A stretch of DNA of 64,000 nucleotides from positions 49,823,626-49,887,625 of the forward strand of contig CM074516.1 in assembly GCA_037379345.1 (NCBI GenBank), written 5' to 3'. Positions 12,611 through 43,000 of the stretch are shown here, in pieces (position 1 is the first letter of the stretch; every line of letters starts with the position of its first letter). Under the pieces are notes generated by a model. That model saw only the letters and a list, made by a program, of their open reading frames with translations. It was not told the origin of the DNA and did no database searches. A program made the position numbers and the translations under genes. This DNA is from Perna viridis (taxonomy: Eukaryota).

Positions 12611-12639
12611 ACTGTGACTTTTTTTGTAGATCAGATAGA

Positions 12640-12975: not shown

Positions 12976-12977
12976 AG

Positions 12978-14178
12978 ACAAGTGGCTCCCAAGAGCCTGA
13001 ATCACTCACCTGCTTTCAAGGGCAATAACTGTAACAAGGAGTTGTCCGACAATTTTGACTCAAAATATGACTTAGGTAGAACTTATGAGGATCATTTCAT
13101 CAATTCAAGGGCAATAACTCTAACAAGGAGTCATCTGAAAACATTGATCCCCACAAACTTTTGTACCCCTTATCATAAGGATCATATCAACAACTGAAAG
13201 TTTCATTCTATCATAGTTTTCAAGTTATAGGCTGAAAACATAAAAACAAGCCACTTTTTTTTCACCTTTCAAGGGCAACAACTCTTACATAGAGTTGTCA
13301 GACAACTCTGATCCCTTGGAATTATTTATGGGCCTTATTATATGGATCATTTCAGCAACTGAAAGAATTTAGCTAAACCTAACAGTTTAGGAGATATGAG
13401 AAAAACTTCTGACTGACCCCTTTGTTCTATTTTTAGTAACAGCAGCCATGTTTTTTGATGGATCAAAAATCCCTGAATCAGTTCTAAGTTTAGTTCCAAT
13501 CAGTCAAGTTGTGTCAGATGAGAGGATTTTTGAAGAAAATTACATTAAACATAGGTCTCATCATGCTGAACACTTTTACCATTGTCAGAACTGGCTAAAC
13601 CCAAAGGTTTTGAAGATATGTGCAAAAAACTAATGTCTGACCCTTATGTTCTACTTTTAGTAATGATGGCAATGATTTTTGATGGATCAAAATTCCCCAT
13701 ATCAGTTATATGCAGGATTTCCAAAGGAACATTCATACCAAGTTTAGTTCCAATAGTCAAGTAGTGTCGAAAGGAGAAAATTTTGTAAAGAAATAACAAT
13801 AAAAATTGCAAAAAAAATTCGAAAAATGGCAATAACTACAACATGCCTTCACAGATTTAAACAAAAATTTCACCACATATAGATCTCATCATGCTGAACA
13901 TTTTTATCCTGTCAGAATTTGGCTTAACCTAACATTTTTAGAGATATATGCAAAAAACTACTGTCTGACCCCTATGTTCTATTTTTAGTAATAGCAGCCA
14001 CGCTTTTTGAAGTATCAAAAATCCTCACATCAGTTCTATCCTGGATATTAAAAAAAACATTCATACCAGTTTGATTCCAATTGTCAGAGGAGAAGAGCTT
14101 TGGAAAATTATTAACGATGGCAGACGCCAAGTGATGGCCATAGCTCACATGGCCTTTGGCCTCTCCTTGTGAGTGAAA
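12978..14178 (-). mobile_element. HINE/pearl-like element, same family as 11825-12610, opposite orientation
   Basis: acaagtggctcccaagagcctgaatcactcacctg end, internal tandem repeats, gacgccaagtgatggccatagctcacatggcctttggcc end. Confidence 0.78.
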
Positions 14179-14235
14179 TTATGAAAATAAAGATTTAGAG
14201 GGATACCTTACAAGGCAAACCATCCAACTTTGAGA

Positions 14236-15795: not shown

Positions 15796-16092
15796 TCAGA
15801 CATGATCTTCCACAGAGTCTGAATTCACAGTAGGATCTCGAGAAGCTGATATTTTTCTCTGGACCCAGTCTAATGCATGTGAAATTCTCCTAACATGACG
15901 TGAACTAGCACTAGTCTTTTCCTTTAATGTTTGGTCTGACATTGTCAATAACTGTTCAAGGGAGGTAAGTCCATTCTGTTTTATTGTTTCTGTGTACATG
16001 GGTAATCCTATTGAGATGAAGAAACCATCAATAGAAGAAATATCTAAATCACAAGCCTTGGAACAGGTGACAGTTATATCTACAGCAGGAAT
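15796..16092 (-). CDS. SASH1: SASH1-like terminal coding exon, second SAM domain
   Basis: tttttcag|ATT CCT..TGA; [51 protein letters not shown]. Confidence 0.92.
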   Translation of the reverse strand: MPAVDITVTCSKACDLDISSIDGFFISIGLPMYTETIKQNGLTSLEQLLTMSDQTLKEKTSASSRHVRRISHALDWVQRKISASRDPTVNSDSVEDHV

Positions 16093-19000
16093 CTGAAAAA
16101 AAAACACACAAAACACTATCAAATATTTCATTAACCAGATGAACTAAAGAAAACTATTTATATTTACATTTTTTGTCCCCCAATGACTGAAGAATTAGGG
16201 CCACTACCCCCAAAATTTCTTCCCAACTTTCTTGTTAAAATAAGGACCTTTGTTCTGAATTTCACTCGGATCCATCAACTAATATAAGGTTCCAGTCTAT
16301 ACTATGACATAGTCCTTGTTTCATAGAGCAAACCTGCTCTTGTCATCATTACAAATCTTAGTGACTTGTATTTTGTATGTTGCAATAAGTTATAATGTAT
16401 TTTGTATAAATCATGATTGTTTGTACTGTCAACCATGTCTCATATGGGGCCCTTTTTGGAAATAAAATCATCTTCTTCTATACAAGTAATTGCGTGAAAA
16501 ACAGGTGTCTAAGAACTTCCACTGCCATTTCATTTTAGGACCATAAAACTTTCACACACTTTTCAGTAAGGAATTTGGGTACTGGAAATTAATGGAAGAT
16601 TGGGGGTAACTTACCACAGGTTTTCTGGAGGTCTTGAGTTGATGAATTCTGATTTGATCAAGTACTATGGCTACACTACTGATGTCTTGTTTAAGTTCAT
16701 CAGAGTATCTCTGTATAAACAATGGAGGTATACCACATGCACCACACTAGAAAACAAATTAAGAAATAACTTAGTAAATGAATTATCTTGTTTTAACATC
16801 CAATATCAGACTATATAAAATAGGCTAGCTAATTTAAACATGAACTACACACTGTATATTTTTTTATTAAATCTTGTATTTTTTTTAAATCAGGAGTTAT
16901 GGTTCTTTACTGGTTTGTATTACTGTTGATATACTACATGATTTACAAATAAATGAAAAAATTAGTCCTATTCTTACTGCTAACAAAATGATTCTCAGGA
17001 TAAAACCCAGACTCTCTATAAGACACAGAAAAGCTATCAGAAAGATACATACATGCAATCAATCAACTTTTTCATATATTCTTTAAATGAAAGAGAGGGA
17101 CTTGAAACAAGTCTAGAAAAAACCTTATTGCTGCTCAATTGGACCTCAAGATTTGTTTTTTCTTTTATTTAACTTCTAAGGATTATAACCAAGCTGTGTA
17201 CTACACAAACCTGTTAAGAGTATGGTTCCAGAGATAACTCTCTAGATGTGTACTATACAAACCTGTGTAGAGTAAGGTTCCAGAGATAACTCTCTAGATG
17301 TGTACTATACAAACCTGGGTAGAGTAAGGTTCCAGAGATAACTCTATAGCTGTGTACTATACAAACCTGTGTACAGTATGGTTCCAGGGATAACTCTCTA
17401 GATGTGTACTATACAAACCTGGGTAGAGTAAGGTTCCAGAGATAACTCTATAGCTGTGTACTATACAAACCTGTGTACAGTATGGTTCCAGAGATAACTC
17501 TCTAGATGTGTACTATACAAACCTGTGTAGAGTAAGGTTCCAGAGATAACTCTATAGCTGTGTACTATACAAACCTGTGTACAGTATGGTTCCAGAGATA
17601 ACTCTCTAGATGTGTACTATACAAATCTGGGTAGAGTAAGGTTCCAGAGATAACTCTATAGCTGTGTACTATACAAACCTGTGTACAGTATGGTTCCAGA
17701 GATAACTCTCTAGATGTGTACTATACAAACCTGGGTAGAGTAAGGTTCCAGAGATAACTCTATAGCTGTGTATTATAAAAACCTGTGTACAGTATGGTTC
17801 CAGAGATAACTCTCTAGATGTGTACTATACAAACCTGTGTAGAGTAAGGTTCCAGGGATAACTCTCTAGCTGTGTACTATACAAACCTGTGTAGAGTAAG
17901 GTTCCTGAGATAAATCTATAGCTTCTGAGGCAAGTTTTGATGCTACTATATTGACTAATGACTTTTTGACTTGTCTATATCCTGCTACAGGACTGGCTGA
18001 GACAGATCCATTCATAGTACGAGGCTTAGGTGAGTCGTAACATGGCACATGATGAGAAGGCGTCTGTGGATTATTATTTTCTGACAAGATTTTTCGATGC
18101 CCATCACTTTGGGTAGACATGCATAAACTAGCACTATCTGATGATACCCTGCAATGGGCATCACTTGGAAGAAATTTTTGGTCGTTATTCGAACTATTTA
18201 CAGGCATATGAATATGTGCACTACTTATAGGTGACATGACCTGAACTGTTGCATCTCTAACAACAGAACCCATCCTGGGAACATTTTTGCGCACAAATGT
18301 CTTGGAAGTTTTACTGTCAATCACAGATTGCTGAGGAATTTTCGAGGCATGGATATGGGTTGAAGGATTTGCTCCGCTAGAGGAGCCACTTGGTGAGGTC
18401 TGAGTTTCTGCATAGGAACAAGTTACAATGTCAATACCTTGATGACTAGAATCACCATGGTTACAATCATCTGCTATACTTCGTTTAATCAGTTCAAATA
18501 CTTCTCTGTCCTCCTCAGAATAATTACTTTCAACTTTATTGGAAGACTCATTTGTCGAAACATGAAAGTTTTCAGGAAGAACATTCTCCTTGTTATTAGA
18601 GAGAAGAGGAAGAGTCTTAGATTGATGATTTCTGTTATGTATATGTTCCCAGCTTGCATAGCAACCAGAATCACGACTAGATGGATATGAACGTTGCTCT
18701 ACAGCAGGTGAAGCACATGGAGGGGTGTACATCAAGTATCTGTTTATATTTGGTATATGGTCCACTGAAACAGAGAACATCAACTAATTATCTCATTGAA
18801 ATCCTCTTAACTGATGCTCTATCAATATTTTAAAATTCAATCCATTTCAATGAGGTTTAAATGAAAACATATACTTAATATCTATCTATAATTTTAAAAG
18901 AGTATTTATTACTTTGCCTATATCTTTTGTCCTAAATCACCTAATTTCTCACCAACTATATCAGAAAGGAAATCTGCTGCAGTAAGAAGCTTGGTTCTTT

Positions 19001-22000
19001 CTTGTTGATCAGTTATATGTAAAGCATTTAAATCATCCTCGTCTAATTCAACAAAACTCTCTAAGTGATCAAACCCATTCTGTACAAAAACTTCTTCCAG
19101 GTGCTGTAATAAGAGATTGATGAAGTATAAGGAAAAACAACTCAGGACCTGACATTCTAGGGGAATAAGTAGATTCTAAGTTATTCCCCTTTGTTCATAA
19201 CACCAAAGTAATACAATAAGTGTGTATAATGTTTTTATTATTACAATTACTGAGAAAAATCCCACATTTAAAATTCAATAATGCTAATTTAATTATTGCA
19301 ATTTTAAGTTTGTCACATTTTTTGCAATATTTTTTTTAAATATCAAATTAGTGATAAATTCATTATCCTTATCCTTCCATTTTCCTGAAGAAAAAAGTTA
19401 TCTAATATTTATAACATCAAAAAACACTACAAATTTGACTAAGCGAGCCTTTGTACCTGAAGTCCAAGTTTTTGTAGAAGTTCAGTAACGTTTTTTGGTT
19501 TAAATTTCTTATTGTTCTTTGGTGCTATGGCCTTCATCTGTGTCAGTCCAGAATGGTGCTCCAGAGGCTCTACATGGGAGGCTTTAAACCAACCATTTCT
19601 ACCGTTTACACTTCCCCAACATAAACCACTGGTTGTCTTGTTCATTACAAATATCACATCCCCTCTCTACAACAGAATAAGATAGATACAACAGCTACCT
19701 TCCACAATAAGATCACATCCCCTCTCTAAAACAGAATAAGACAGATATCTACTTTCAACAATAAGATCACATCCCCTCTCTAAAACAGAATAAGACAGAC
19801 ATCTACCTTTAACAATAAGACCACATCCCCTCTCTACAACAGAATAAGACAGACATCTACCTTCCACAATAAGATCACATCCCCTCTCTAAAACAGAGTA
19901 GGACAGATATCTACCTTTAACAATAAGATCACATCCCCTCTCTACATCAGAATAAGACAGATATAACGGCTACCTTCCACAATAAGATCACATACCCTCT
20001 CTAAAACAGAGTAGGACAGATATCTACCTTCAACAATAAGATCACATCCCCTCTCTAAAACAGAATAAGACAGATATAACAGCTACCTTCCACAATAAGA
20101 TCACATACCCTCTCTAAAACAGAGTAGGACAGATATCTACCTTCCACAATAAGATCACATCCCCTCTCTACAACAGAATAAGACAGATATAACAGCTACC
20201 TTCCACAATAAGAACACATCCCCTCTCTACAACAGAATAAGACAGATATCTACCTTCAACAATAAGATCACATCCCCTCTCTAAAACAGAATAAGACAGA
20301 TATAACGGCTACCTTTAACAATAAGATCACATACCCTCTCTAAAACAGAATAAGACAGATATCTACCTTCAACAATAAGAACACATCCCCTCTCTACATC
20401 AGAATAAGACAGATATCTACCTTTAACAATAAGATCACATCCCCTCTCTAAAACAGAATAAGACAGATATAACGGCTACCTTCCACAATAAGATCACATC
20501 CCCTCTCTACAACAGAATAAGACAGATATAACAGCTACCTTCCACAATAAGATCCCATACCCTCTCTAAAACAGAGTAGGACAGATATCTACCTTCAACA
20601 ATAAGATGACATACCTATTCTTCAAAAATAGCTTCCTTACTTAAACTTTTAAGAGTAAGGCCAAATTAAACCAAGGCCATAATGAAATCAATGTGCTGTT
20701 AGCACTGGAATTTTTTTTTATTCTTGTGAAAGTTGTAGCATGAACAGTTTCAAAGATTACCTCCTGTATAAACACTAGTTGAAATATTTCTAGTGACTTC
20801 TGAAGTATAAACTGTCAATGATATTCAATACGGTTTACAATATTATTTACAAATTTGGTTAAATTTCACCTTTTTCCTAAATTTTTGAACCTGTCAAAAT
20901 GTTAATTTGCATTTACATTCAATAATATTTTACCAGAGTATTTATCCTACATGAATCAAAATAAAACCAATTTCAGCTGAAGAAAAAAATGTGCATGATG
21001 AACATATGATTTTCCAAAACTCAACAATTTTTTCCCCACAAATTCACTGCTTTTCACTTCCTGTTTATTAATCATAAAATATTACTGATAGGATGGAGAA
21101 TTTGACTGATAAGTATGTGAAATAAATGTTTCATGACACATTATTGCAAGAACTAAATTTCCTAAATGCAATTTAACTAAACAGGAGTCCCTCAATCTTC
21201 AGTTCATAAGATTTAAAAACTAGATCTTAATCAATCTGCAGAAATAATAGAATATTTTTGAGCTTGACTATATTTTTGTGTAGTGTTCAAAATTACCACT
21301 TGTATTTCCTTGAAAAATGGTTCCAAATTAAAAAAACAAAACTGGTGCAGGTGTAACATTAGAGACACATATAACTGGTACAGGTGTAGCATTAGAGACA
21401 CATGAAACTGGTACAGGTGTAGCATTAGAGACACATATAACTGGTACAGGTGTAGCATTAGAGACAATATAACTGGTACAGGTGTTGCATTAGACACACA
21501 TAACTGGTACAGGTGTTGCATTAGACACACATAAATCTGGTACAGGTGTAACATTAGAGACACATATAACTGGTACAGGTGTTGCATTAGAGACACATGA
21601 AACTGGTACAGGTGTTGCATTAGAGACACATATAACAGGTACAGGTGTAGCATTAGAGACACATATAACTGGTACAGGTGTAGCATTAGACACACATATA
21701 ACTGGTACAGGTGTAGCATTAGAGACACATATAACTGGTACAGGTGTAGCATTAGAGACACATATAACTGGTACAGGTGTAGCATTAGACACACATAACT
21801 GGTACAGGTGTTGCACTAAACACACATATAACTGGTACAGGTGTAGCATTAGACACACATATAACTGGTACAGGTGTAGCATTAGAGACACATATAACAG
21901 GTACAGGTGTTGCATTAGAGACACATATAACAGGTACAGGTGTTGTATTAGAGACACATATAACTGGTACAGGTGTAGCATTAGAGACACATATAACTGG

Positions 22001-25000
22001 TACAGGTGTAGCATTAGACACACATAACTGGTACAGGTGTTGCACTAGACACACATATTACTGGTACAGGTGTAGCATTAGACACACATATAACTGGTAC
22101 AGGTGTAGCATTAGAGACACATATAACTGGTACAGGTGTTGCATTAGACACACATATAACTGGTACAGGTGTTGCATTAGACACAATATAACTGGTACAG
22201 GTGTTGCATTAGAGACACAATATAACTGGTACAGGTGTAACATAAGAGACACACATAACTGGTACAGGTGTAGCATTAGAGACACATATAACTGGTACAG
22301 GTGTAGCATTAGACACACATATAACTGGTACAGGTGTAGCATTAGAGACACATATAACTGGTACAGGTGTAGCATTAGAGACACATATAACTGGTACAGG
22401 TGTTGCACTAGACACACATATAACTGGTACAGGTGTTGCATTAGACACACATATAACTGGTACAGGTGTTGCATTAGACACACATATAACTGGTACAGGT
22501 GTAACATTAGAGACACTTTAATAAAGCTGAGTGACCATTATTGTAGGGAAATAAAAAATAAAATTCACCCTCCAGCCAATTTTTTTTTCAGAAATATTGA
22601 ATGAGAACCTCGGAATTTTTTTTTTATCATGGCCTTAAGTATTTTATCCCTTACATTTATCTATTACAAGGTTATAAAAGTACATGTTATAATACATGTT
22701 GTGAGTTTGATCATTTGTGATTCTAAAATAAAATGAGGGGTACACAGACAAATAAGCCTAATAAACATGTGGGTGATTACTGAGAACATTATCCTATAAT
22801 TCGGTTACCACTTTCTCTTCCTTTTTGAAGCTGATTTAAGTTTTAAGTAACAAGATAGATTCATATCTAAATAATAATCCAAGTACTTAACACTTTCACA
22901 AGATGGATATCTCTGCAGAGATAGCTAACACCTGGTTATAATTGTGGCAGTTGTGAAGCTTCTAATCCAATTTCCCTTCCTTCATATCTTGTAACTTACA
23001 AATAATTATTTAATTTATAATGCAATTAATACATTATGTATACATATATGTCTAACAAGATCTTTATCTAAAGAACATAATTTACTTCTATACTGAAATA
23101 ATATTATTATACCTTTATCTTGAGGCTGTCTATTGCAATAGTATATTACACCTCTAACTTGAGGATGTCTTTCTAAATAATATAAATATAACATATCTCT
23201 AAGTTGGGGATGGCTCTCTATTAGTTGAGATTGTCTATGTTATAATATACCTGAAGTTTTAAGAAGTCTGTATCAGTTTTGGTAGGTATGAAGTCGGTGT
23301 GAACTTTGACAGCCATAGGACAGGAAGCAACTGAGTTGTCATCCATTGACACAGAACTTTTACCACTCATTGGGCTCACACTTTGTAGACTCCCTATGAA
23401 GGAAAATAAAATCTCAATTGATGGATTATAATGCCCATTGTGTCACTACATCATTATAAATAGAGAATATTATAGAAAGACAAAGTGTCACACTCCTGCT
23501 TCAAACAAGACAACCCTCAAGAAAAAATTACCTTCTTTTTTAAGCATCTGACTTATTGATATCTATCTTAAACAAAAACAGGAGAAGTAAATATCCAAAC
23601 ATAAAAGAGCAGGCATCCCTGTATAAAGTTGTCAAAATCTATTGACTGAGGGAGTTTGGTATACAAGGTACATTAATAAAAACATGTGAAAATATCAATT
23701 CCTACTCAGTCTCAAAAAACTTAAAGGGGATAAGAAGGGAGGAACAAATTTCAGATGAAGAGAGGGACAAATTCCAGATGACTAAGAGCTTATATCATAA
23801 CATTAAAGCACGGCTTACTTGTGTCGAAAAGAAGGGCCTTCCGCTTAAAACTTCTTAAAATGCTCAAATTTTATAGGATAAGAAAGGAAACCACAGTCAA
23901 GTTCTCTAACATTTATCCTACATACTACTGCAGAGTGCAGACCAAAGAATGTCTGATTGATCCATATCCCAAAGAATATCTGATTGATCAATATCCAAAA
24001 AAATGTCTGATTGATCCATATCCCAAAGAATATCTGATTGATCAATATCCCAAAAAATGTCTGATTGATCCATATCCCAAAGAATGTCAGATTGATTGAT
24101 ATCCCAAAGAATGTCTGATAGATCCATATCCCAAAAAATGTCTGTTTGATTCCATATCCCAAAGAATATCTGACTGATTGATATCCCAAAGAATATCTGA
24201 TTGATCTATATCCAAAAGAATGTCTGATTGATTGATGTCCCAAAGAATGTCAGATTGATTTCTATCCCAAATAATGTCTGATTGTTCCATATCCCAAAGA
24301 ATGTCTGATTGATATCCCAATCAATATTAACTGCAGTGGCAAGTTAATAACAAATAATCTAATTATATTTTCCATATTGACTTCATTCATTATCTCCTGC
24401 TTGCTGCGGCTGATGCCCATAAATGTCAGTTTTCGACCAGTTAATGTTGGAGTATAAAAATCTGTCATCAATAATAGAATTACAAGGTGGAAATTACATT
24501 ATTGACCAGTCTACAGAGTTCATGCCCTTGACTTCAAATATGCTGTTTCGTTTCATGGTCTTCAATACAATCAAACATCCAGTTTTTCTCAAAGGTTTCT
24601 TAATCATATAAATTGTTTAAATGGTTGTTAAGCTGATAGATTTCTCCAGGTAATGTTTTCTTAAATGTCTTCATGAGTTTAATTATAAATCTGCTAAACT
24701 ATACTTAAAAATATTTGACGTTTCATTTCCACACCATGAAAGTCAACAACAGAATCTATTAAGATGTGAAACCTATAATTTATTAACTCTGTCATAAACT
24801 GACCATATCACAACAATCTAATCAACACTTTTACCCCAGATATTTGATATTACATTTATGTACATGAGACAATACAATAGATCCACGCCAAAATAACATG
24901 TAACTTGGATCACGCTATTTGACTATGTATCATTTTAGTTCTGATGTAGTAAAAATTTCTTTGTGGTATAATAATAGGTTTTCTTATTCTAATAACACCC

Positions 25001-28000
25001 AATAGATCTATAAAATGTCCAAATATTGGTGGGACACGATAAAATATTGATGTCTAGTGCCATTGTACCATGGTGAAACATACCGTGGTGAAACATACCG
25101 CCATAATATAAAAATTATTAGAGGAGAAAAAGCCACAAGCATGTTGGCTTGTTATCATTGACTTTCCATTATTGTATGGAAACCACAGGCCTTTTAGAAT
25201 ACCTGTGGGTTATTTACATGAATTAGATTGCACAATACTAGGTTGAATGTAAACTTATAGGTCTACATACTAGATACAGGACTGCTGACATAATGCTTTC
25301 CTTGCATGTGGAGTTGTAACAAAAAATATTAATGATACATGTAACACAAAATGTTTGAGACATTTTTCATCATAAATGAAATAAAATAAATTGACTTATA
25401 AACAGTGACAATGGTTGATTTGGAATTCCACCTCTTTTGTTAAAGTTTGTTAAGTTAGTTCAAAGCTTTCTCAAAAATGTGTAAATTGAAGCCAGGAACC
25501 CCCTTTTCTATAATTTGTGATTGAAACCCTCCTTTTATTGACTTACTGATTCCTGTACTGGATCCACTATGGTTACTCTCTGATGAACTGATAGACTTGG
25601 TTGTATCTGTGTTTGTTGGGCAGCACTGAAATCATAAAGTATTTTAATTGTAAGTATAAGATTCTCATTTAATTTCAGTTCAGTATATGGAACAAAATGT
25701 ATGGGAGACGGTAGAAAACAATATTTTGAAACATTCTTTGGCATTCATTATAAATACCCTTTCAAAATGATAATTGTTTGGAAATCATGCAAAATTCTCA
25801 TTATTTATTACCATCATCCTCTATTTTTAAATTAAAATGGCTCTAGATTTTTGACATTATCATCAAAACAATCGTACATATCAAATACCAAAATTACACA
25901 GAAAAACCCTTGCTGATAGCTGGGAGAACATTTTGACATGGTTTATATATATATTGCCATAGTGCCTAAAAAATAAGATATTTCAACTATATTTGAAGGA
26001 AGAGATACTGTACTGGTGTTTATGGTATTAGTCATGACCAGAGCTTCATGTTAATGTCATATTACCATACACTGTTTTCCAGTTTTTAAGACATGTTCCC
26101 CATAAAAAAAAACATTCTCTTATATATGCTGTTCTCCTAGTGGTTCTTATTTGAACAATAAATGGTCCCAAAAGCCTATATGAATGCAAAAAATTGAAGA
26201 GCTATATTCAATAAACAAGCACAGATCTAAACGTGTTTATATCAAGTTTAATCAGAAAATTATTCCATTGCATGATCATCTGTAATAAAAAGATCAAAAT
26301 CTTATGAAAAAGGTTTTAAAGATGCCCCTACGGGAAGATGAAATTTGAAATAGAAAATCAGATAACATTTTATGTTGATTTAGCATCGAATTCAATCAAA
26401 TAGATTTGTCCTAACATTGGTAGGTGTCCTATCTTAGACATTATATCATTGCAGAATATGTGATCCAGATGTGATTGAACAAGAACTTTACAATGTGCTT
26501 TAACTAAGAATTTAATAAGGCATAAAGAGCATATGGAGCTGCATTTCAATATTGTTATTAATATCAGTAAAATTAATCGCTGCTGAATAATTCATTGATG
26601 TGGAAGAGAGACAGGAATATCCATTAACACAAACTACCATCAACTAGCGCTTCCAATCATTGACTAAAATGCAAGTCTACACAAGATGATAAGGGAAAAC
26701 ACTTCATAAAATTAAACATGTGTTGTTAAATGCAATGTTTGTGACAGGTCTATAGTCACAGAATGTTTGCACAGACTGGTATAGAAACAATACCATTGTC
26801 ATCTCTGTAAGATAGTTGGCTAGTCAATTTATTATATCTGGTGTTCAGGACAGACATGACACTATGAAGGAACAGATTTTATCTTGGGATCAATAAACTG
26901 ATGGTTGACATAGCTTTCAGCATTTTGTGAAGCTGTGATTAGCTGCTGGTAGAAATAAGGAAAATGTATCTAATTTAGAAAAGCAAAACAACAGATTGTA
27001 ATAGGCAAAACACAACAAAGAAAATAGATCTTGATAGTCAAGAAAAGGCAATTAAAGTTTCTACCTATGAATAGATTGCCAAACATTTCTATTTGTATGG
27101 CAATAGTCAGCTGTTTCTAACTCTATAGCACAAAAAATGCCTGGTTAATATAATCAACTCCATTGTAAAATAATCTGTACATTACAATATAAACATTCAT
27201 TAACAGTAATGTAGAACCAAAGCTTTGATTTATCTATTACCTCATCTTCATCACTTTCTAATTTACAAAACACTAAAATGTTGTCATTCTAAACACAAGG
27301 ATAAAACGATTACCAGACCAAATAGCACTGTTTACCAGAAAACAGCTTGATCAATTTAACAGACCAGAGTAAAACACATTCAGGACTACAGAAGAAATTT
27401 GTCAATGTCGAAAACTATTCTGTAAACTGTTGTTAATTAAATTTTTGCAGCATCTGTCTTGTAGCTGGTACTTATTGAAATTCCCTCTTGTCAACCAAAT
27501 ATCTCAATTTATTCTTAAAGAAAAAGAATTATTGTCGTGTATAATTGTGACTCAGTCTAGAAAATATCGCTGAAATGTGACAAGTGATATAATATGGTGT
27601 TGAAACACTGCATCATGTGTGAAATGGCATTCCTCCACTCATAATCCAATATACTGAGACACAGAAAGGAGATCAGAAAAGTGCTCAAGTCTAATCCTTT
27701 TATATGAAAACTATTTCATTGTATGAAACTAAATAACTGCAAATTAGATTTTGTATCATTGTTAAATGCATAAATAGCAGAAATTGTTGAAATTAAATAC
27801 TACATTTTAAAACTCTGAAATTTTGAATAACAGTATCACCCATTTTTTTGTTTATTTTTAGTAACCAGTAATATTTTTTCTATGAATCACAACAAAGTAG
27901 GTTACAGGTAAATAATAGTAGTCAAGGAATGCCTGTGTAATCTTATATTTATTTCACTGTTTTTCTGGTAGATTTATTACACAGAAACTAAATCATGTAT

Positions 28001-31000
28001 AAAATAACATGTTGAGACCTTGAACCCAGCTTCGGTTTGAACTTTAGTATCTCTCTCTCTCTTGATCAGGAACCGTGTTAAGAAGAATTAACTCTACTTT
28101 CATTTAGAAGATAACAGAATCCATTTAAGAATTGAAACTTTCAACTAATGCACCATATTTAATCAGATCCCTTGAGAAAACCATAACTCTACAAGTTTTT
28201 GTTTTAAAAGAGGTTCAGACCTTGGAAGGATGATACTGGAACTGCTCATTAAGGACAATTTTCTTTATATGTAGTGCTTAAAGTAATATGGTATTTTGTC
28301 TTTGTATTTCCTTACTGGATGCTAAAGACAATCAGAAGATTATGGTATTACAGAGTGATCAGTGAACAAGAGCTTCAACAAAAACTCAGCTAGGCCTTAA
28401 ACTGAAATCATTCAACAAAATCTTCCACAACTCAGCTAAGTCCCAAAATCATTCAACAAAATCTTCCACAACTCAGCTAAGTCCCAAAATCATTCAACGA
28501 AATCTTCCACAACTCAGCTAAGTCCCAAAATCATTCAACGAAATCTTCCACAACTCAGCTACGTCCCGAAATCATTCAAAAATCTTCCAGAACTCAGCTA
28601 CGTCCTGAAATCATTCAACAAAATCTTCCACAACTCAGCTACATCCTGAAATTATTCAAGAAAATCTTCCACAACTCAAGCTATGTCTTGAAATCGTTCA
28701 ACAAAATCTTCCACAACTCAGCTAGGTCTTAAACTAAAATCATTCAACAAAATCTTCCACAACTCAGCTAGGTTTTACACTGAAATTATTCAACAAAATC
28801 TTCCACCACTCAGCGAAGTCCTGAAATCATTCAAGGCTTCACCATATACTTGTGTACAATTATGGCTCTACTAATTAAATAATCCATAGACTTATACATG
28901 TGGGTCAGTGCATATACATGTATTACAACTGATCATTACATGTACAATGTACCATTATTGTTATAAACACATATCAAGACAGCACATAAATATTAACAAG
29001 AAGTTTTACAATAGAGGTAGAGAAGGCTGTTTTGAAGTCCTTAAATGCATTCTACTAACATCCTACAGACCTACTGTATAGACACACTGTCAACAGGACT
29101 TCCTCTAGTCATATTGTTAGCAAGAGGAAGACAATAAACTTACAAAGCAATTATGTCAAGATCTGTTTAAAAGTGTTCAAATGACCCTGTCACTCATACC
29201 ATACTTATTCTACTGAAATAATGAGTATTCCATCAGTTTCTCATTTTCTGGAATAAACCTTTTGACTTGTAATGAATTCTGTAGAAACATGGACTGATCA
29301 CAATCAACTACCAAAGAAGAACCAAGTCATATTTATCCCAGAATCCTATTGAGACATTTTTCTTACTTGAAAGGTGTCAAGGGACTGCATGATGTCTGTC
29401 AACCCATGATCTAATTATGATTGATGGCTTCCTAAGGGAACCAGTTCTAATTGGACTGATACCAGGTCAAATTTCAACATATTAGCTTTAAAAGGAGAAA
29501 ATTAAAGAACTGTGTAGCGTCAGTAAAGGCCAATTGATAAGTGATTAATTATTTTCTTGACAACTTTCTGAGAAATCATTAGATAAAAGTGCAGTGGTGA
29601 AATATTTAGCACAAAAGTAGAGAATTGATAAGGTCATCACTCAATGGAATAGTCCCTTCATTTTAAACAGAATGGAAACTAGACTTTATTTAAACCAGAT
29701 AAAGCATGAAAAAGAAACATTGTCCTTGTGACTTTTGATTATAATGAGAATGATATAGTATCAAAATATGGATAATAAAGTTGATTCAGATTTTTTTAAT
29801 TTATCACAGAGTAAGTACTTTATACAACGAAATTTAGAATTAACACAGAAATGTTGTTTTTTTTTCACCTGTCAGTTGTTTACTCAATCCACCAAGACAA
29901 ACTAATTTCTTCATTCTCCTTTCTTTCTAATTTAATCATGGTTTATTTCATCTATTACATGGTGTTCTTACATTTCCCATTAGTACAAACAGCTTTGGGA
30001 TATTTACTAATGGCCCAGTACAATGCAGACAAATAAATATGAAAGTCTCAACAATAACATAATACACCATTCTATTCATTTCTGTCAAATTCAATTAGTG
30101 AGATTCTATATGGCTACAATTGACCAATATAATACAATTTGACAAAAGATGACACTTTCCCCCACAAGCTAAAAATGTTTCTTAAGTATATTAAGGAAAC
30201 CCTTTTTCGAAGCTTCAATATCAAAGTAATACACCGAATAATCTGCTTGAATTGCCAATATGAAATTTCTAATCAACTATCTCATTGCATGGAAGTATTT
30301 TATATGACAACCCTCATTAATTTTACAGGATAGCTAAGTAATCCCTTGCTGATCATGAAAGATGAAATATTTTTTGTAGTTTGATAGGCAATTCTGGAGT
30401 GATATATCCTCCCAATTCCATCTTTGTCGTAGGGGTAGTATTTAATCTCCATTCCACCTAATCAAAACTTTCCTACAGAAAGTAAATATTAACCTTTCAA
30501 AACAAACCCATCTTATCAATGGTCTGTGAGAATTTAGTCCTTCCAAACTTATTCCTGAACCTATCTTATCAATTGTCAGTGAGAATAGAATTTTGTCCTT
30601 CCAAAGTTATCCCTGAACCCATCTTATCAATGGTCTATGAGAATTTAGTCCTTCCAATCTTATCCCTGAACCCATCTTATCAATGGTCTACGAGAATTTA
30701 GTCCTCCCAATCTTATCCCTGAACCCATCTCATCAATTGTCTGTGAGAATTTAGTCCTTCCAATCTTATTCCTGAACCCATCTTATCAATGGTCTATGAG
30801 AATTTAGTCCTTCCAATCTTATTCCTGAACCCATCTTATCAATGGTCTATGAGAATTTAGTCCTTCCAAACTTATCCCTGAACCCATCTTATCAATTGTC
30901 TGTGAGAATTTAGTCCTTCCAATCTTATTCCTGAACCCATCTTATCAACTGTCTATGAGAATTTAGTCCTTCCAAACTTATTTCTGATCCCATCTTATCA

Positions 31001-34000
31001 ATTGTCTATAAGGTTTTAGTCCTTCCAAAGTTCTTACTGGGAAGGGGGAGAGCGATTATATACTGTCTTTGGGGAATTAGTTGTCTTTTACTAATGCACC
31101 ATAAAAATAAGTCTACACCATGTACTACAAATTGCAATGTATAAGTGGTGAAGTTTCTTTATACAGAAATCTTAATTTTCAATGTTTCTAATTCATGGAT
31201 ATAAGTAAACCCAATACCTTTTTCAACCTGTGTAAACTGAGATCAAGACAATATGTAGTTCCATAAGTTTTACATTTCTCAAGGTTCTCAGAAATTGTTT
31301 ATTTTTTAACAATATTTATTTTGAGAATATTATAGTTAGTAAGAATGACATCATTGAAGTTTAATCAGGTGAAAAATATCTTTTATGCCGTAATACTGGT
31401 GTCGATAATGAAATCAACAAGGAAATAAACGATCAATAATTTGATAGGAAGACTTATTTAGAAACTAATTACAACTCCAGATATTTTCATTGAAAGAGTA
31501 AAACAGGAAAAATGCATTAATTTGGTATCATTGGGACAGAGAGTTATCACACTGCACCATCTTAATTCAATTTTTTATCCAAAACTTTCTAGAATATAAT
31601 CAGACAGAACATTTTCAATCTAGCATAGAATTTTATGCCACTGAGCATCTTTTTATACAGGGGAAGTTAATGAAGCAAAATGGGCAATTACTTCAGAGAA
31701 ATTTTCAATTATAATTGACTCCCAGTTAATCATACAGACTAATGAAATAACTTGTATAAAACAATTGGTGAGAAATAATTGACCTCCAAATATAGAGGGG
31801 ATGGTACCAACTAAACATTGAGTTGTGGAATAGTTGACCTCCTATATCTATAAAGGGGATAGTACCCTAAAGTTGAGAAAGACCAGTTTGTGTTGTCAGT
31901 TGCTCACTGTACTTCTTGATTGTATTTCTATACATTTAGCTAGCATCTATGTTGAACATGAAGTATGTTTACCGTTCAGATGGATGCTACAGTTGTGAAT
32001 GAAAACAAACAGAGAAGACAAGGAAGTCACCTGTTAATATCATTAACATCTACTATAAAGTTTGTGATCATTTAATACAGAACCATTCATCATTTTCTAA
32101 ATTTAGATACAAGTATAACCTTCTCACCTTCAACCTTGAATGACCTCCAACTTCTGCCTTGACACTCCATGATGGTGGTGAAGTATCTGATGCCATAGAA
32201 ACAGCACTGGAGTTACTACAGTACACAACCTCATCACCTCTAGGAGGCACAAGGTCACTGTGGTTTGGTCCTTGACATTCCATGGATTGCTCTGATTCGA
32301 AAGACAATGAGGATGCATGAGAGGAACTATCATGAACACATGCAAATGTTTTCATTAAATTTCCATGTTGGCATTCTATAGAATGTCCATGCATTTTCAG
32401 TTCATGTGGATTCACTGGAGCGTAAACTCTTGGGCTCTGACTAGGAAGATAGAAATTAACAGGAGACGTTACAGCAGAGCTGGGCATGGTCCGTGTCGGT
32501 GTACAGGAAAGAGACCTTGGAGAATCAGGTGACCTCACAGTGCGATCAAGATGGCTGACACTGTGAACACGTCGATGTTGAAAACATTCAAATCGATGAC
32601 TTGGGTCAGAACACATATTGCGTGAGTTAGTTGAGTCATCAGTCTTTATCTGGCGTAGACACACTCCACATTTCTTTGGGGAATCTGAAAGCACAACAAA
32701 TAATGGACAACTGTTTATAAAAACTTTAATTGAGAGAAGACAACTGTTTATAAAAACTTTAATCGTGTGAACACAACTGTTTATAAAAACTTTGAGAGAG
32801 AAAAAAAGGAACTAAGGACCAACAACCAACTAGTAGAACAGACATTCTAGTGCAAACTCAACGTGGGACTAAACAACAATCATTTTTTTTTTAAATAACA
32901 TCAAATTATGTTAAGATTTCAGTGGAATTATTTCCAGGACCCTTTCAATGTAGTATTAAACAGACAGTTTGACCCAGTAGTTTTCACATTCCCTTCCATT
33001 GAAATCTGACACTTTTGAGTATGAACAGAAAAAAAACTGAAGGCAGATCAACAGACATTCAATGTAGAAGTGAATGGTGCAGTATTGTCTGATGTGGTGG
33101 AGGAAAATAAGTTCATTTATACCAATGTAGAACATAATTGTCTTAAACTATTTGTTTTCTACCATTAACCTATCAGCACTATACCAATACACTGAAGGCA
33201 TTGTTGGCCTCAGATTTACTCTATTCATACCACAATTTTTTTATGGATTTTATATGGTTCAAGCAATAAAGGAAAAATCACAAAGAAATTTGAAAAAAAA
33301 ATTGTCTATCATTAACTTATAAAATTCTTCAGGATTGTTTAATGAGTTATCAAGATGGTATTATACTATAAAATGAGAGTAAATTGATAGGATAAACTGG
33401 TCATGAGAAGCTGTTAACTCAGGTGTAAACGGTAAGAACTGACAATTCCCTTAGGCAATAAAAAAACGGAACTAGAGGCGTTAAAGAGCCTGAATCGCTT
33501 ACTTGGTTTGATAAGCAACATTTTATTTTTGTAAAAGCAGCAATATTTTCTCTTGGATAAAATTCATAATGCTCAAACCTACGGAACAATCATGTCAATG
33601 TCCAGTAGTGTCAAAGGAGAATATTTAAAAAAAAAAACACTTAGTAACATTTAAATAGCGAAAAAACATCAAAAAGGGCAATAACTCCAACATGGCTTAA
33701 CAGATTGACACGAAAATTTGACCACAGACAGATCTCATCAAGCTGAATACTTTTATTCCATGTCAGAATTTTGCTACACCTAACGGTTTTCAAGATATAT
33801 GCAAAAACCCTAGAGTATGATAGCCTTGTAAGTATAGAACTTTATTCAATCAACTGCATTTTATAGAAACTGTTTCCTTGTTAATTGATTGATATTCCTA
33901 ACTTGGTGTCTTATTAGATTGTACAAATATATATATACCAGTGTAGACTGCTGATGGAGACTTGACAGGTCGCCCTTTTTTCTTCTTTCGGTCTTTTTCC

Positions 34001-37000
34001 ATCTACAAGGAAACACAATACAGAGTAGCTTGGGTAAATTTTATAATTCCAAAATTTGATAATCAATTTTGTGCATGTTTTTAATATTTCTAGTTCAGCA
34101 AATAAATATACTTCATTCTCCATGATGAAGTTCTGATTAAAATGGATAACAAATTTAATCCAAAGAGTATTGATAATCTTAGAACTAGAAATCTAAAGCA
34201 TGTGTCTCCGATACACCATATAACAAGAAGGTACCAACAAAAAATCTCCCTTAATTGTTTTCTTTTTATTCAGGCATACACCTTACTGTGTATTTCAGTC
34301 ACCATGATTAGTTCTAATTAGACAAAGCTCACAATTCTAACTTTTAACCACCAAGAAGGACTTAAGAGTGTCCATTTAGAAACCAGGCAGTTCCTATGAT
34401 ATGGATGGCACAGGGTAAAGTTTATCCTGTTGAATTTTTTGTTCCAATGTACTGTTTATATCGTGTATATATATACATTCATTACTACAACAAAATTTTC
34501 AAAATTGACAATGGACGGCTCAGAGAATGGTTTTACACTTCCCTACGAGAGCAACTAAATTTTGCACATAGCGAAAGAGTTTTCTCCCTTTTCAATGAAG
34601 TTCAATGCTATGTAAATCTATTTCTCTTTAACCGTTGCTGTTCATCAAAAACCAACATTCAACTTTGAGAAACGATGCATTTGTGGTACAGATGAAATTG
34701 ATGAAATTTTTTTTGAAACAAAATTTGTAATGTGCCACCCACTGCCTGGTTTTTATTTCATACACTATATGACTAAACAGTACGGGACATTGGAGGTGGA
34801 TAGGACACACTTTAAGAAAATCCCCAATAAGTATGCCCCAGCAGGCCCTAATATGGAATCCCAAAGGGAAATAAAAGAGGTAGAACTTGCAACACATGGA
34901 GAAGATATTTAGAGGAAGAGCCTGAATCTCTCCCTTGATAACCTACATTCTTTTCATTGTAAAAGCGTCCAAGACTTTCTTTGATACAAAACCCATTTTA
35001 TGCAGGAGAAACTTAGGAATGATCAAACTTTGAATTATAAAGTAATTTTAACATCAAAAATAGCAAAAAAGAATGTCCAAAAAAGGATTCGCTCCAACAT
35101 CAGTTAATTGATGATCACAGATATCTCATCATGCAGGACGTCAAAGTTTGACATAACCTAATAATTCAATTTCAGAAGTAACACACTTTCTGAAAAGTTT
35201 TGTAATGTGACTGTGATGTAATGAAACTTTTAATTTAACCTGAATGCCAGTTGTGTGCACTTGAAAATAACCTTCTACCAAGGAGTGTGCACCACATGAT
35301 TAGGAGTTTACATCAATCTTACACAGACTATAATCAGAATAGGGTATAACACCTATTGTAATACTGATCGTATTGGAAACTCTCAAAACTCTCAAAAAGA
35401 GAGAAGTCCACCCATTAAAAAGAGAGAAGTCCACCTATTCACAGTTCTTTTTACATGTCATATTATTTTGGCAATTCACTTCCACAATAACTTGACAGCT
35501 TTAGGAGGTAACTCTAAGGAAAAAGGACAGATTTATTAACAATATGGATGCTCCTTTATAAACTATCAAATGGAGGAACCAAGGAGATTTACTTTCAATA
35601 CAGCAGGCCCCTTTATAAACTATCAAATGGAAGAACCAAGGAGATTTACTTTCAATATAGCAGGCCCCTTTATAAACTATAAAACTAAAGAACCACCAAA
35701 ATTTATATGTATAAACAATATGGCTGGTCAACAATCAGGAAAGTAAGATGACATGCATGCTCAGCCACAATTAAATCACACTTGGCAGAAATCATGGATA
35801 ATTTCCGATATTATGTTAAAATGTAATTATAGTGCATGTTTCAATGTTCGCAAAAAAACAGACAATTAGCTTTCTGATGTCTGCAGTTCATGACAGTCAC
35901 ACCCATCCGCTTGATCCCAATAAAAAATTCAAGATTTTCCACTTCCGACTTTCTCAAATCTGCTTCTAAATTAAGCTATTTATCAAAATTTAATGACAGC
36001 CCAGTGTATTTTACATTGATTTGTGGGAAGTTAACTGTGCTAAAATCAATGGACTTGGCCCATTAATTAAACATGGAGTTATTTCCAGAAGAAAACCCTA
36101 TTTCAGTGTCACACTTGTATTACACTTCATTAATCAAAAGCACCATAAAATCAGAGGTTTTAAGCTCAGATATTGGTTTATATATTCTCATATGGAGGTT
36201 AATGTACATTTTGACCTCTCATGCACATGAAAAATACATTTAGACTACTAAGGTCCAAATTGACTGATTTGCTTCAGAAGAAACTTTGGACATTAGTATT
36301 GTTTTATGAATATATCAACAATTTTAGGCAGTTGCTATGGAGATCCAGTAACAAACCAATTGTTCATTCTGTCCTAGACACGAACTTCAGAAAATTATAG
36401 TCATTTCATTTATCATTTATTGCAATGATTTCCACAGAAAATTTGGGAATTCATTCAGAACTTTTAAGTGATATAACAATTCAGCAAAATCTGAAACCTA
36501 AAAGAGATTGGAAATAATTGTTTTTTTTTCTGCATGCATGGTAGATAGACTTAAATTACTGTCATATTGTTCCTTTTACAGAATGATACCTATTGCCATT
36601 AGATTTCTTTTCCAAAAGATATAAAGAAGTATACCATTAACTTCAATTGACAAAAAAATCACCAGCCAGGATTCCCTAACTCATACTTTCTTAATAAATT
36701 GTAATTAACATCAGACATCACTTTTGTAAACAACATGCCTCTAGAGGGAAAGCCTACATTGATGTTGCTGCCAAACTATTTCTTGCCAACCTTGTTACTA
36801 TAAATATCTTTTCTAGTCTGCACCTTCATTATTGAAACAAGACCAGGGTGATAGTGATTCCAGATTTTACACAATACTCAATTTATTTGCCAAACTTTCT
36901 ACAGGAGCATTGGTTTATCATATATGAGTTCAATTGTACTTTAGTCAGAATATTTACATTGTAAGAAGAAAGTGGAAGAAATCATGTTTTGTCTGTGATA

Positions 37001-40000
37001 TACAGCTCAGTCAATTAAAACTCAACCAACAGGAATAGACAATAAAGAAACTGATGTAACAAAAATATTCCAACATTTGAAAGTGTAAAATGTAAAATGT
37101 TGAAAAAAATATTGCAAAATACTGCATTTTCTCATCACTTTACATAACTTTATTTCCTTTAACAGTCATCAAATAACTTAATTGTCTGAAATGCCAGGGA
37201 AATTATAGATTTAATTACAGCGACTGGTAACAGGCTGAAACATATCACTAATATTCACAATACTAAATGTTGCTGATTTAAAATGGCTCCATCAAATGTA
37301 AGTTTTTGTGACAAATTGTCACTTCAATGATTACATCATCAGTAATAACAGAAGAAGCAAATATGACAGAATAACTATATATGATATATTTCACTGGAGC
37401 TGAAGCATAAATAATTCACCATCTAATTATAGGAAAATCATCCATACATGGTAAAAATGGACATAAAATTCTCAGACTTCGTGTCTCCATGCAATCCTTG
37501 GTATTATGAGGTTTCTGCTTTTTCTTTGGAAACTAAAATCAATTTTCATGTTGCATGTAGAGTCTCACACTATTTGAAAGTGAACCACAGTAAAAAGTGT
37601 TATATCACAAGTATAAAATTATGTGAAAGCAACAAATTGACCAGACAATGTAAATAAGGAAGAAGCTATGGACAGGGATAGGACTGGAAGACAGGGAATG
37701 AGTGTGGGGACAAAAATAGAAGTTAGGGAGAGGGCATAGGAGTAACTAGGGATAAAAATGGGGAATCAGCACCAGAAACAAAGACGGAGACTGGGAAACA
37801 GGGCATTGAATGAGTATAAAATTACCTGCAGTATTTCTTTCCTTCGTTCATCTTCAAACTTTTTCACCTGAAAAGAAAAACCAAAACTTAAAATATTTAT
37901 CTAAATGGTAATAGTATCTACTCACTGAACAAATTACTATTTGTAGTATCTACTCACCTGAACAAATTACTATTAGGTCACAAACTGAGTAAATGAACAA
38001 ATTATGCATTGATGCATTATCAATTAACAAGTTTTACCACTCTGATAAACAGGACTATATCAACTGCCATACCATTTCTGACAATTAAAATAGATCATAG
38101 GTGAGAGATCAACAAACCTAAGATATACCAGGAACAGTATTAACAAATAAGGACTAGAAATCATTAATTCCACTTCCCATAGGCTTCAATGCTAATTTTA
38201 CAATATTCAATGGCTTCCTTGGACTACACCTTAACTTAAACCTACGGAATATATATATTAGCATGATTCTACATATGTTACCTCACAATACTCAGAATAG
38301 CATATGAGGTTAGCAGACTTGGAATGCAGCACTGGTCACCGAAAGTAAAGGGTTTATAAAAAGCAAGGGAAATACCAGGGTTTTCACAAGATAGGGGTAT
38401 ACTTTAGTATTAAGACATCACAATGGTATTAAAAATTTACATTAAAAGAAGAAAAATGCCCTTATGAAATGTGCAGAAATGTTTTCCCTTGCAGAAACAG
38501 TCTTAATTTTTGAAATAACAAAAAACTTTATTCACAGCACTACAATGAACAAGGGACCATTTCGGTGTAGGACTATTTTTGTGTACATTCCAAATGCTCA
38601 TTGGTTGAATTGGTGGAGTCTAACCTAAACAGTCCATTTTTGTCTTCAAAAAAATTAAATAACTATACAAGTAGCTTCTTACAAACATAGTGAATGAATG
38701 TGCAAAGTTTCAGCGAAATTTAACAAGCACTTTTTGGAATATTTGATTCTCAAATAAAGGTTTACAAAGTTGTGCAACCAAAAAAGTGACAATATTCTAC
38801 ACTACTGAAGTGCCTTATGTATTTGCAAGTAACTTTTTCTGAATTATCAGATAAAAAGAATCAACCAATACTTGTTTGACAATATTAGTATGAGTTAGCC
38901 TGAACTTGTGAGTATTTTCTAAAAAGAATATTGACCAAATATTCAGAATTTATATCTTACATGCCTCCCCCCTTTTCTTGATCATGTGTCAAAGCTCTAA
39001 ATGTTTAAATTTTAACATAAAGTGATATATTGGGCTTGTATCTAAAGCATTTTACAAGATGTGGTCAACCAACACATATATCAAGGATAAGTGATTTTTA
39101 TATACACTTTTTGAAAAATAAATAATATTGCTGAAATAATACTCTTTAATAATTTACTTCACATTTTACCAACATATGGTACCACAGCCGACAAATAGCC
39201 ACAATGAAGAAATGTCAACGACAACTACCTGATTGATGAACACAGCAACAGCATTATAAATGGATGTTTTTTTTTTGTTTTTTTGGGGGTTTTTTTTGGG
39301 GGGGGTGAATACATCTTATTTATTGAAAACTGTGAAAAGCTAGTATTGTTTTCCATCCTCTTTTTGTTACAACAGAATTTTGTTCAATAAGGATACAGAA
39401 AACACAGCCTATGGTCAACTGTGCTTCACTAAGTGAAAAACTTGACCTGATCCATCCCTTTTCATGCACTGGTTCAATTTGCAACTTAAATAAAAGGCAG
39501 AGTATATGTAATTGGAATTAACCGTCCCCTTCAGGAAAACCTTATGTAAATTTTATTTCAGATCAAAAACAAAATATTCCAACCTTTAAAGTAATCCACA
39601 GTTGATATTCAGAGAAAACCTTTCCTGTCATTAAGAGAGAACAATCGCACCAGCACATTATTTTCTCCTCAGAACTTCAAATAAATTGAACTTGTATTGA
39701 TTGTTGAGATACCTACAATGTGCTGGGGATGTAATGATTACAATTAAGTTTGATTATAGCATGCAGTTGTTTACCTATAGTTTCCTGTGGATCACACAAT
39801 CAGCCCATTAATTTTCCTGGCTTCACGATTGATTTCAGTAAAATATTAATGACAGACATGCTTAAGGGCGGCTCATTCACAGGAATCATACATACATCTT
39901 CTATAATGTTTTACAACAATTCTATCAAGTCTACTACACTATAACATTTCTATGATTACATCACATCTACCCCAAAGAACTTGAGATAAAGGATACTACA

Positions 40001-43000
40001 GACACGGTGAAGTCAGCCTCATATATTGATCTACACTTAGTGATCGAAGGTAAAGGAAAACTTATAATTGACCAAACTTTACAACAAATGTGATGACTTT
40101 TCATTCAGAATTGTCAACATTCCTTTCATCTGTGGCAACATCCCTTCAGCACCTGCTTATGGACTTTTTATATTACAATTCATACGTTATGCCAGAGCAT
40201 GCCTTAACTATGCAGACTTTTTGTATTGCGCTGGACTCCTTACAATCAGACTTCTGGAACAGGGTTATTTTACTACAAGATTGAAGTCATCACTACAGAA
40301 TTTTTATGGTCATCATCATAAACTTGTGGATCATAACAGTGTATCCATTTGCACCATGAAAACTAATTTATTCAACGGGTCATAGTTTTCCTTCCCTTGT
40401 TTGTCTACCCCGGACATGACTTTTTATGAGCAACTTGGCAGGTGTTTCTAGAAAAGCAGAGGACGCTTACCCTACCAGTGCACCTGGTCCATGCTCCCAG
40501 TTTTCAGTGGAGTCAGAGTTGCTAATTAACTTTTGTTACTTTGTATGTATTATTTTAGTTATTTTATTTTCTTTGTTGTGTATGTCTGTTTTCCATGTCT
40601 GGTCTTTGTCTCTGGATTACATTCTTTAGATTTCCTCTAGACTCTTGATTTCCTTGATTATTCTTAGACACTAATGATGAAACTTCTATTTACAACTAAT
40701 TCAGCTTCCTTCACAACAACAAAAGAAATCCAAAGAGTTGGATGAAGTCACCTGCTAACTGTTCCTATACCAAAGCTGATAATGATGCAGAGAAAACTCT
40801 GGTATAAGTTTAAAGGGAAATGAACTCAAACAAATCAGTTTGTGGTAAACAAACTAAAAAACATGTACTCCTGTAATATTTATAGAGATGAGAGAAGAAA
40901 TGCAGTGTTATCATGTATAATGGCAATAAATACTTTAGAGCTATCATATGTAAATCTATCCAGTTGTGCTCTATATTACATATAAGAACATGTTTCCCTG
41001 TTATCTGAATAAAACAATGCCTAATCTAACATTCTCTTTGAAAATGATGACTAAATTTAAATGATAACAAATCTGAATAATACATGTACATCCTTACATT
41101 AACTTCATTGTCAGTGAGTACTAGGTAATTCTACATTGATTTTCTGGAAATTTTATGAATAAAAACAAAGTCGCAATAAGTTAAAAAAAAATTATGACAA
41201 CAGTTGATTTAAATACTTTCAGTTAATCTGAAAATATAAAGTTTCTGGTCAGCTGTTATCCGTCCTGTACTAAATGAAAATAATGCCTTGGAGAGTTGTA
41301 TTACAAGCATCAGGTGGAATGTAATAAAACACCACAAAAGTACTATAAAGACAGCTTGACACCACCTAGAATGTTCTTTGTACCAAGGAATTACTTCTCC
41401 TGTTGACCATACAGCAGATGTACTTCCCTGAGGGATAGTGGTATATCATTTAATCATAAGAGCAATCAACTGATTACAACTGATCACAGACAGAAGCTAC
41501 ACATACATTACACAGATTGTTACTGTGATAGACAATCTGATAACCATGAAATTACCTACTTCCCATTTGGAAGGCATCATATGATTATAGGCTTTGCCTA
41601 TGGGGGATGGAGCTATTTCCTCTCAAATAACATTTGACTTTGTTGAAAATGTGCTGTGTTGATGATATATTGTTGATGTCTTGACCACCAGAATATACAA
41701 GACTACCTGTAACACATGCAGTGTGTCTTTTTGTAAAGTTCAAACAATTAGTCCTTTCCAAAATACATCACTTCTGACAGAACGATTCTGAGCCACTTAT
41801 GTTTCAGAGTATCTACACATGACATTACTGATGCTCCATTTGTCACAGTGGACAATCTGGTTCTACTGAACTAACTATAAATCTGTTTTACAGTGTACAG
41901 TGATGTGCAGTGATGTGCAGTGATATTCTTTTTGAAGGTTAGGAGTAGGATCAATTCTACATCCACTACAACACCATTACAATTAAAATCTTCTTAAAAC
42001 CATATTGTCATTCTCAGCCATTCTATCGCACTGTTTACATTTTAAACATTTACAACCAAAAGTACTCCTCTAAGCAAGTGGCCCACACAAGGTAAAAACT
42101 AAGAAACTCAATTTATCAAGCCAGCCTAATAAAAGGATTAAAATAAAACAATTCATCAAAAAAGCAAAAAGCATAGACAGTCACTAAAAGAACTGCCTCT
42201 TCACTGAAAAACTATAAATTACTCAAATTTCAATTTAAAAATTGTCAATAGTGATATTTTGTCATTTGACACTGATTCTAAACCACTGAGACAAAAATTA
42301 CAGGCAATTTACTTTTTTCTCTTGGCTTTAGTCAAATCTGCAGGAATCTTGAATTTCCCAATTACTGATATTTGAAATGGAGCCGGTTATGCAAGTGTCT
42401 GTAAAATATTAGCCATCAGAAAGCATGGCTTGTGGTTGATATTTCATCATCAGATTGAATTTCAAGTTCTTCCCAAATAGGTTCATTAATCAACAAATAA
42501 CTTGTTAGTGCCCATTCACTTTCAAATGGCCTCAGATTTATTTTTTTACAATTCTAACATAAAAAGCCATAGAGTTTTGTAGAAAAAATATTAATGACTT
42601 TAATGGATGATGCAATATTTTACAGTTGACAGAAGGAGATATGGAACTAAGCCTGGAAATTTATCAGGAGGCATTTCCCAGATAATTTCTCCATTTCCTT
42701 ATTTGTAATGTCTGGAACATCTGGAATATGTTGAACTGATAACATCATCCACTCACAAGGTAGAGTTCTCTATTACTCTATGAAAACGGAAGTATATACG
42801 AGCAAAAGAATGGACACCCCTATCTTTATATACCCTAAACTTTGCATCCAGGGGTATAATAAAAAGATGGTTGCACAAGGAGATAAAACTAATTTGTCAC
42901 AGAACAATAAGGCAACTAAGATATCCAACAGCTTTAACCAGATGTCCAACGATAAGTCAGAAATGTCTTCTTTTGTAATCAACTGACACTTCCCTAAGAA

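Follow-up and report, generated by a model that had tools for sequence, protein, structure and literature searches.

The closest described systems are the 'mirage' minisatellites of amphioxus, reported for the globin genes BflGb6 and BflGb9 and for Adh3 (PMC3087553), to which troponin C and PGBD5 have been added (PMC3902484). In the available excerpts of these two reports, mirages leave regular splicing undisturbed. Two human loci are also relevant. Intron 7 of F7 contains a 37-bp VNTR whose first unit spans the exon-intron boundary, and its identical splice sites are normally silent, the silence of the donors having been demonstrated by mutagenesis (PMC1557585, excerpt). In CBS 844ins68, the intron/exon junction is duplicated at the 5′ end of the exon, the downstream copy is strongly favoured and the mRNA is normal (PMC2630376, excerpt).

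The window analysed here is a stretch of 64,000 nt of Perna viridis DNA. One of its genes contains an array of duplicated splice acceptors that fits the amphioxus mirages as the excerpted text describes them (PMC3087553). The array consists of head-to-tail units of minisatellite size (54/59 nt, 17 copies) that span an exon-intron boundary, so that the splice signal is duplicated with them. As in the amphioxus cases covered by the excerpts, the authentic site has its copies on the intronic side and continues to be spliced in the regular way. The acceptor-side position is that of BflGb6, the unit size is covered by the range of 10-72 bp given for Adh3, and the copy at the end of the array is unlike those within it, as is also the case at the boundaries of amphioxus mirage clusters. 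Length variation among alleles or cells is a further feature of mirages; the DNA considered here comes from one sample, in the form of short-read contigs.

There are also differences. The host is a mollusc and not a cephalochordate, the mussel array has 17 copies against three to six in BflGb6, and, unlike the amphioxus mirages in the portions available, its units each carry an in-frame AG...GT pair 27 nt apart. As far as the excerpt describes it, the F7 VNTR is a direct parallel of a 52-nt donor array that we found in the same mussel gene; it is donor-side, whereas the 16 extra copies treated here are acceptor-side and known from sequence and RNA contigs. CBS 844ins68, again according to its excerpt, comprises one extra 68-bp copy, whereas the mussel locus holds an array. 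We consider it probable that the mussel array is a boundary-spanning tandem repeat of the mirage type, that the main RNA is spliced at the last, authentic acceptor, and that the 16 extra copies are likely functionless passengers.

Results

Host gene and anatomy of the array

The features discussed below are the following:

15797..55864, minus strand: host gene; its 14 exons within the window make up a single open frame of 947 codons
23251..23393, minus strand: upstream exon, 143 nt, first SH3 strand and what we take to be the RT loop, donor at 23251
20603..20612, minus strand: 5′ edge of the array, a 10-nt stretch with 8/10 positions matching exon bases 19659-19650
19653..20612, minus strand: acceptor-side 'mirage' minisatellite; the intron end and the first 14 exonic nt recur here in 16 extra copies
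19699..19725, minus strand: last of the 16 pseudo-exons, 27 nt followed by GTAG
19457..19666, minus strand: true exon, 210 nt, phase 0/0, authentic acceptor at 19667/19666
18953..19103, minus strand: next exon, 151 nt, SAM domain
17192..17923, minus strand: the gene's second mirage, with a 52-nt unit that repeats the donor at 17887 (14 copies)

The 14 host-gene exons have AG/GT ends; the 5′ exons, including the N-terminal SAM exons, were not found within the window. The 210-nt exon encodes the C-terminal two thirds of the SH3 domain, a linker and the start of the next SAM domain. It gave a Pfam SH3_2 match, and two mytilid homologues, one of them from Mytilus coruscus, share 76-77% identity with it. 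The Mytilus edulis homologue (XP_071134910.1) bears the RefSeq name 'SAM and SH3 domain-containing protein 1-like', another homologue (P0002) has three SAM domains and one SH3 domain, and the PDB matches include SAMD5, SAMSN1, SASH1 and SASH3 among other SAM/SH3 proteins. An SH3 domain followed by a SAM domain, with further SAM domains, is the arrangement of the SASH1/SAMD5-like (SLy-related) proteins, and from its predicted domains the host gene likely encodes an SH3-SAM protein of this kind.

We compared 19 of the 35 cluster members, three of which are fragments outside the exon site. None of the 16 homologues covering the site has an insertion or a missing exon at the position of the array; 15 have the same length there, and the sixteenth, a predicted model, is without eight residues. 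A conserved isoform with a skip or an insertion was likewise not found among the 19. Elsewhere in the gene, a real 30-nt exon (50491-50462, minus strand) resembles a 10-residue segment of P0002, and in Mytilus one isoform of each X1/X2 pair is 10 residues longer than the other, probably through this exon. A 46-nt array at 50521-50797 stops about 30 nt upstream of its acceptor, to which it bears a faint resemblance.

The acceptor TAG/AGAGGG (the slash marks the splice position) is present 17 times on the minus strand: the true copy at 19666 and 16 extra copies whose first 'exonic' bases run from 20565 to 19725. This unit count confirms the 16 decoy acceptors that a first-pass annotation of this DNA had placed before the true one. 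Ten of the 16 units are 54 nt long and six are 59 nt long, each with 40-45 nt of intron and 14 nt of exon. TRF located the array at 19653-20612 with periods of 54 and 113 and 86-90% matches, 113 being the higher-order period. The AG is kept in all 16 extra units, whereas their exonic part, which the annotation had called a 14-nt copy of the exon, matches the true exon start at 12-14 of the 14 positions. Every extra AG is followed after 27 nt by GTAG (16/16). These 27 nt are free of stops and the intron (23250-19667) is in phase 0, as the annotation had it.

The annotation's more detailed description of the unit held for part of the array. The acceptor reads as written in 10/16 units and differs in the other six; the donor is AAG/GTAGAT in eight, AAG/GTAGCY in seven and AAA/GTAGAT in one; and the two peptides it named are encoded by nine units, while seven encode others. 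For the spacing, given there as about 27-33 nt, we measured gaps to the next AG of 27 or 32 nt. The repeat itself is far beyond chance. In its own genome the array stretch had a single match, in a search that skips simple repeats, and we rejected a mobile or dispersed element as its origin on this ground.

Splicing of the host gene in RNA

Sequences from four runs were mapped to the stretch 17830-19790, which covers the true acceptor and units 15-16; a joint or loose end had to be seen in three reads to be listed, and all but five of the loose-end rows were compared. Of these runs, X4 and X12 are contigs from two studies that we guessed to be RNA, and contigs drop rare forms. X21 is the sole raw RNA run, with 108 reads mapped from the roughly 19% of the run that was read.

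In X4 (depth 37) and X12 (depth 58), one long contig each joins the 23251 donor directly to 19666, and the loose letters of these contigs match 23253 onward. The main RNA form therefore uses the last AG, which the annotation had offered as its fallback. Mapping the junctions, as the annotation had proposed, returned the direct joint in X4 and X12, while among the joints listed at low depth for units 15-16 in the four runs none connects the upstream exon to a decoy AG. At the same shallow depth and for the same two units, a joint from a repeat GTAG to 19666 is absent from the joints listed in all four runs. Authentic-site splicing persists in the main form, and minor forms are possible; X21 contains some reads that skip the exon.

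Up to five X21 reads join 23251 exactly to 19103 and so omit the 210-nt exon in frame, compared with 16 inclusion reads (12 + 4), a skip share of 24% (95% interval 8-47% if the reads are independent). The 19103 acceptor thus receives inclusion reads as well as reads from the 23251 donor. About 10 further X21 reads come from array units (8 sense, 2 antisense), and no loose end was listed at the true acceptor in this run, where it may have had fewer than three reads or be among the five rows outside the comparison. Two short introns are almost without X21 reads, and the donor array is without any. The T-rich intron stretch 19288-19323 draws foreign reads and contigs and is probably a fragment of a dispersed repeat.

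These observations bear on the possibility that competition from 16 further acceptors makes the 210-nt exon harder to recognise and causes partial in-frame skipping, with array length as a modifier. The skip reads and the array-derived reads, both from X21, speak for it, and the exon is present in all the annotated isoforms from Mytilus and related species that we compared; because none of these lacks the exon, skipping is not a known conserved event. The evidence, however, comes from one run and from few molecules, with mates and duplicates in the count and patchy coverage, and the X4 and X12 contigs do not contain the skip. With an agreement of 0.95, one of the five could instead be a short read of the inclusion form. 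In addition, the 210-nt exon and the upstream exon share the same terminal 7 nt, so that template switching by reverse transcriptase can mimic the skip with an identical junction. Overall, we regard array-driven skipping as unlikely. If it did occur, the resulting protein would lose most of its SH3 domain together with the beginning of the SAM domain. For the annotation's further suggestion, that SH3 integrity might be tuned by copy number, the one hint in the data is the skipped exon and not an included microexon.

The 27-nt pieces within the units

The annotation had read the array as a nascent, mutually exclusive microexon cassette. In such a reading, the units would be alternative in-frame 27-nt microexons that add nine residues to the SH3 domain. 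It is true that all 16 units present an AG, 27 stop-free nucleotides and a GT in the phase of the intron, and that the gene can handle short exons, because it has the real 30-nt exon, which is probably alternative in Mytilus. Mirage units have also been proposed as possible future exons over evolutionary time, in the excerpted text of Ebner et al (PMC3087553).

Each 27-nt piece is made up of 14 nt of exon copy and 13 nt of former intron, and no more than 32 nt separate the donor of the last pseudo-exon from the true acceptor. The in-frame donor-like site counts as a single chance event, multiplied to 16 by the repeat. The a priori chance of such a site is about 2-6% for motifs of the AG/GT, AG/GTR and G/GTR types; in the gene's non-repeat intron DNA, an in-frame AG/GT is met within 40 nt in about 4% of cases and any in-frame GT in about 56%. 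Scored with a small matrix built from the gene's 13 real donors, the decoy donors reached 0.2-4.5, compared with 5.4-9.6 for 12 of the real donors and -0.1 for the thirteenth; G at position +4 occurs in none of the 13. When matches to the consensus are simply counted, the ranges of decoy donors (5-6 of 9) and real donors (5-8 of 9) overlap, and by pyrimidine content the decoy acceptors appear equal in strength to real ones.

Variants within the 27 nt comprise five amino-acid-changing and two silent ones, at few sites, and suggest no coding constraint. The annotation had also argued that neighbouring units are too close to be spliced together and hence mutually exclusive. From the donor of a unit to the acceptor two units on, the distance is 81-91 nt and the frame of the 27-nt units is kept. 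It is not evident that an intron could not be this short; non-adjacent units could therefore be joined, and the spacing does not imply mutual exclusivity. We also compared branch points between the last and the inner units by eye, and the difference was not convincing. The cassette thus found no support in joints, spacing, variants or homologues. No supporting joint or loose end was listed for units 15-16 at low depth, the donors are weak on the gene-derived matrix, neither coding constraint nor mutual exclusivity is apparent, and the homologues covering the site are without an insertion. We rejected it as the main reading, and use of the units as microexons is very unlikely.

Integrity of the array

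The array is real. Short-read DNA contigs of run X15, which may be the assembly's own sample, link both of its ends to unique sequence, and summed X15 depth over the units is 6-43x single-copy depth, a figure that is not a copy number; because of these joins and this many-fold depth, an assembly artefact, which the annotation had named as a possible refutation, is unlikely. Although we met no long read that spans the array, its units differ from one another in a patterned way and their variants recur among the X21 reads as well as in RNA-type contigs from two further studies, and it is hardly credible that it arose in assembly or is much shorter on real chromosomes.

Mirages elsewhere in the gene and the genome

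The second mirage of the gene, at 17192-17923, keeps the GT in 13 of its 14 donor copies, and its first, authentic copy is the one used in X21, X4 and X12. A general targeting of splice sites by repeats was considered and rejected: arrays make up 14% of the span of the gene, and just 2 of its 27 junctions have been duplicated. In the window as a whole, minisatellites (period of at least 10, at least three copies) occupy about 20% of the sequence, compared with 3.6% of the myosin loci described below. The window also contains a 327-nt tandem pair at 44608-45280 and, by eye, a repeated transposon-like sequence at about 12000-14200, downstream of the gene.

As a control, we inspected by eye the exon matches of two unrelated families, myosin and kinesin, in the mussel's own genome. 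Seven myosin matches had an array at a distance of at most 60 nt; three of them were excluded (two arrays that stop short of the junction and one A-rich run), which left 4 of 95 matches with a mirage, two at acceptors and two at donors. Among the best 30 of 126 kinesin matches, two had a nearby array and one of these was excluded because the match extended into the intron, leaving one mirage. Combined, this gives 5 of 125 matches, or 5 of 250 match ends, about 2% (0.7-4.6%), a rough rate given that match ends approximate exon ends and are partly non-independent.

One of the five is a donor mirage in a myosin gene (L050:6675-7162, on G000:C13), whose 48-nt unit is present in about 10 copies that are 96% alike; the unit is mostly exon sequence and each carries an AG and a GT. 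The others lie at myosin exon ends (two acceptor, one donor) and at a kinesin donor (L037:9423-9544, L040:4525-4694, L054:6981-7500 and L086:1677-1968). Several G000 contigs also contain many similar kinesin fragments (profile positions 134-216 and 59-90; e.g. L076, L078, L081-L083 and L089), a number of them with an internal stop; these fragments are possibly cargo of a mobile element.

Discussion

For the reading that we prefer, a mirage whose extra copies are passengers, a simple course of events can be proposed. The array would have been born when some 54-59 nt were duplicated between a 10-nt stretch of the intron and a similar one near the start of the exon, and the similarity found at the 5′ edge of the array suggests that this was the likely seed of the first duplication. 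Growth may then have proceeded by slippage or unequal crossing-over. The array would be tolerated because the copies accumulate towards the intron, so that one exon stays intact.

The choice of the last AG could be explained by exon definition, since only this AG precedes a full exon with a real donor 210 nt on; the other AGs would have only weak GTAG donors behind them. Read from a decoy AG without its GTAG, every unit runs into a stop within 17-23 codons. Nonsense-mediated decay removes RNAs with premature stops, and RNAs spliced to a decoy in this way would thus probably be destroyed. The same decay would conceal the use of decoy acceptors, a point against the preferred reading.

In the literature searched, where subscription journals were mostly outside coverage, we found no paper on mirages in bivalves. 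For now, the acceptor array simply adds a bivalve case to the known mirages. Together with its donor-side twin in the same gene, it amounts to a neat experiment of nature on the choice that the spliceosome makes among 17 near-identical acceptors. Because no bivalve mirage paper was found, a genome-wide count of mirages in mussels might be new, though descriptive.

The importance of the array would be greater if its length set the rate of skipping, since the published accounts have mirages leaving splicing undisturbed. We give little credence to the idea that a mirage of variable length could serve as a dial for splicing, with more decoy acceptors leading to more in-frame skipping of the SH3/SAM exon. 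Were it correct, the mirages at about 2% of exon ends would represent widespread, unrecognised splicing variation in mussels.
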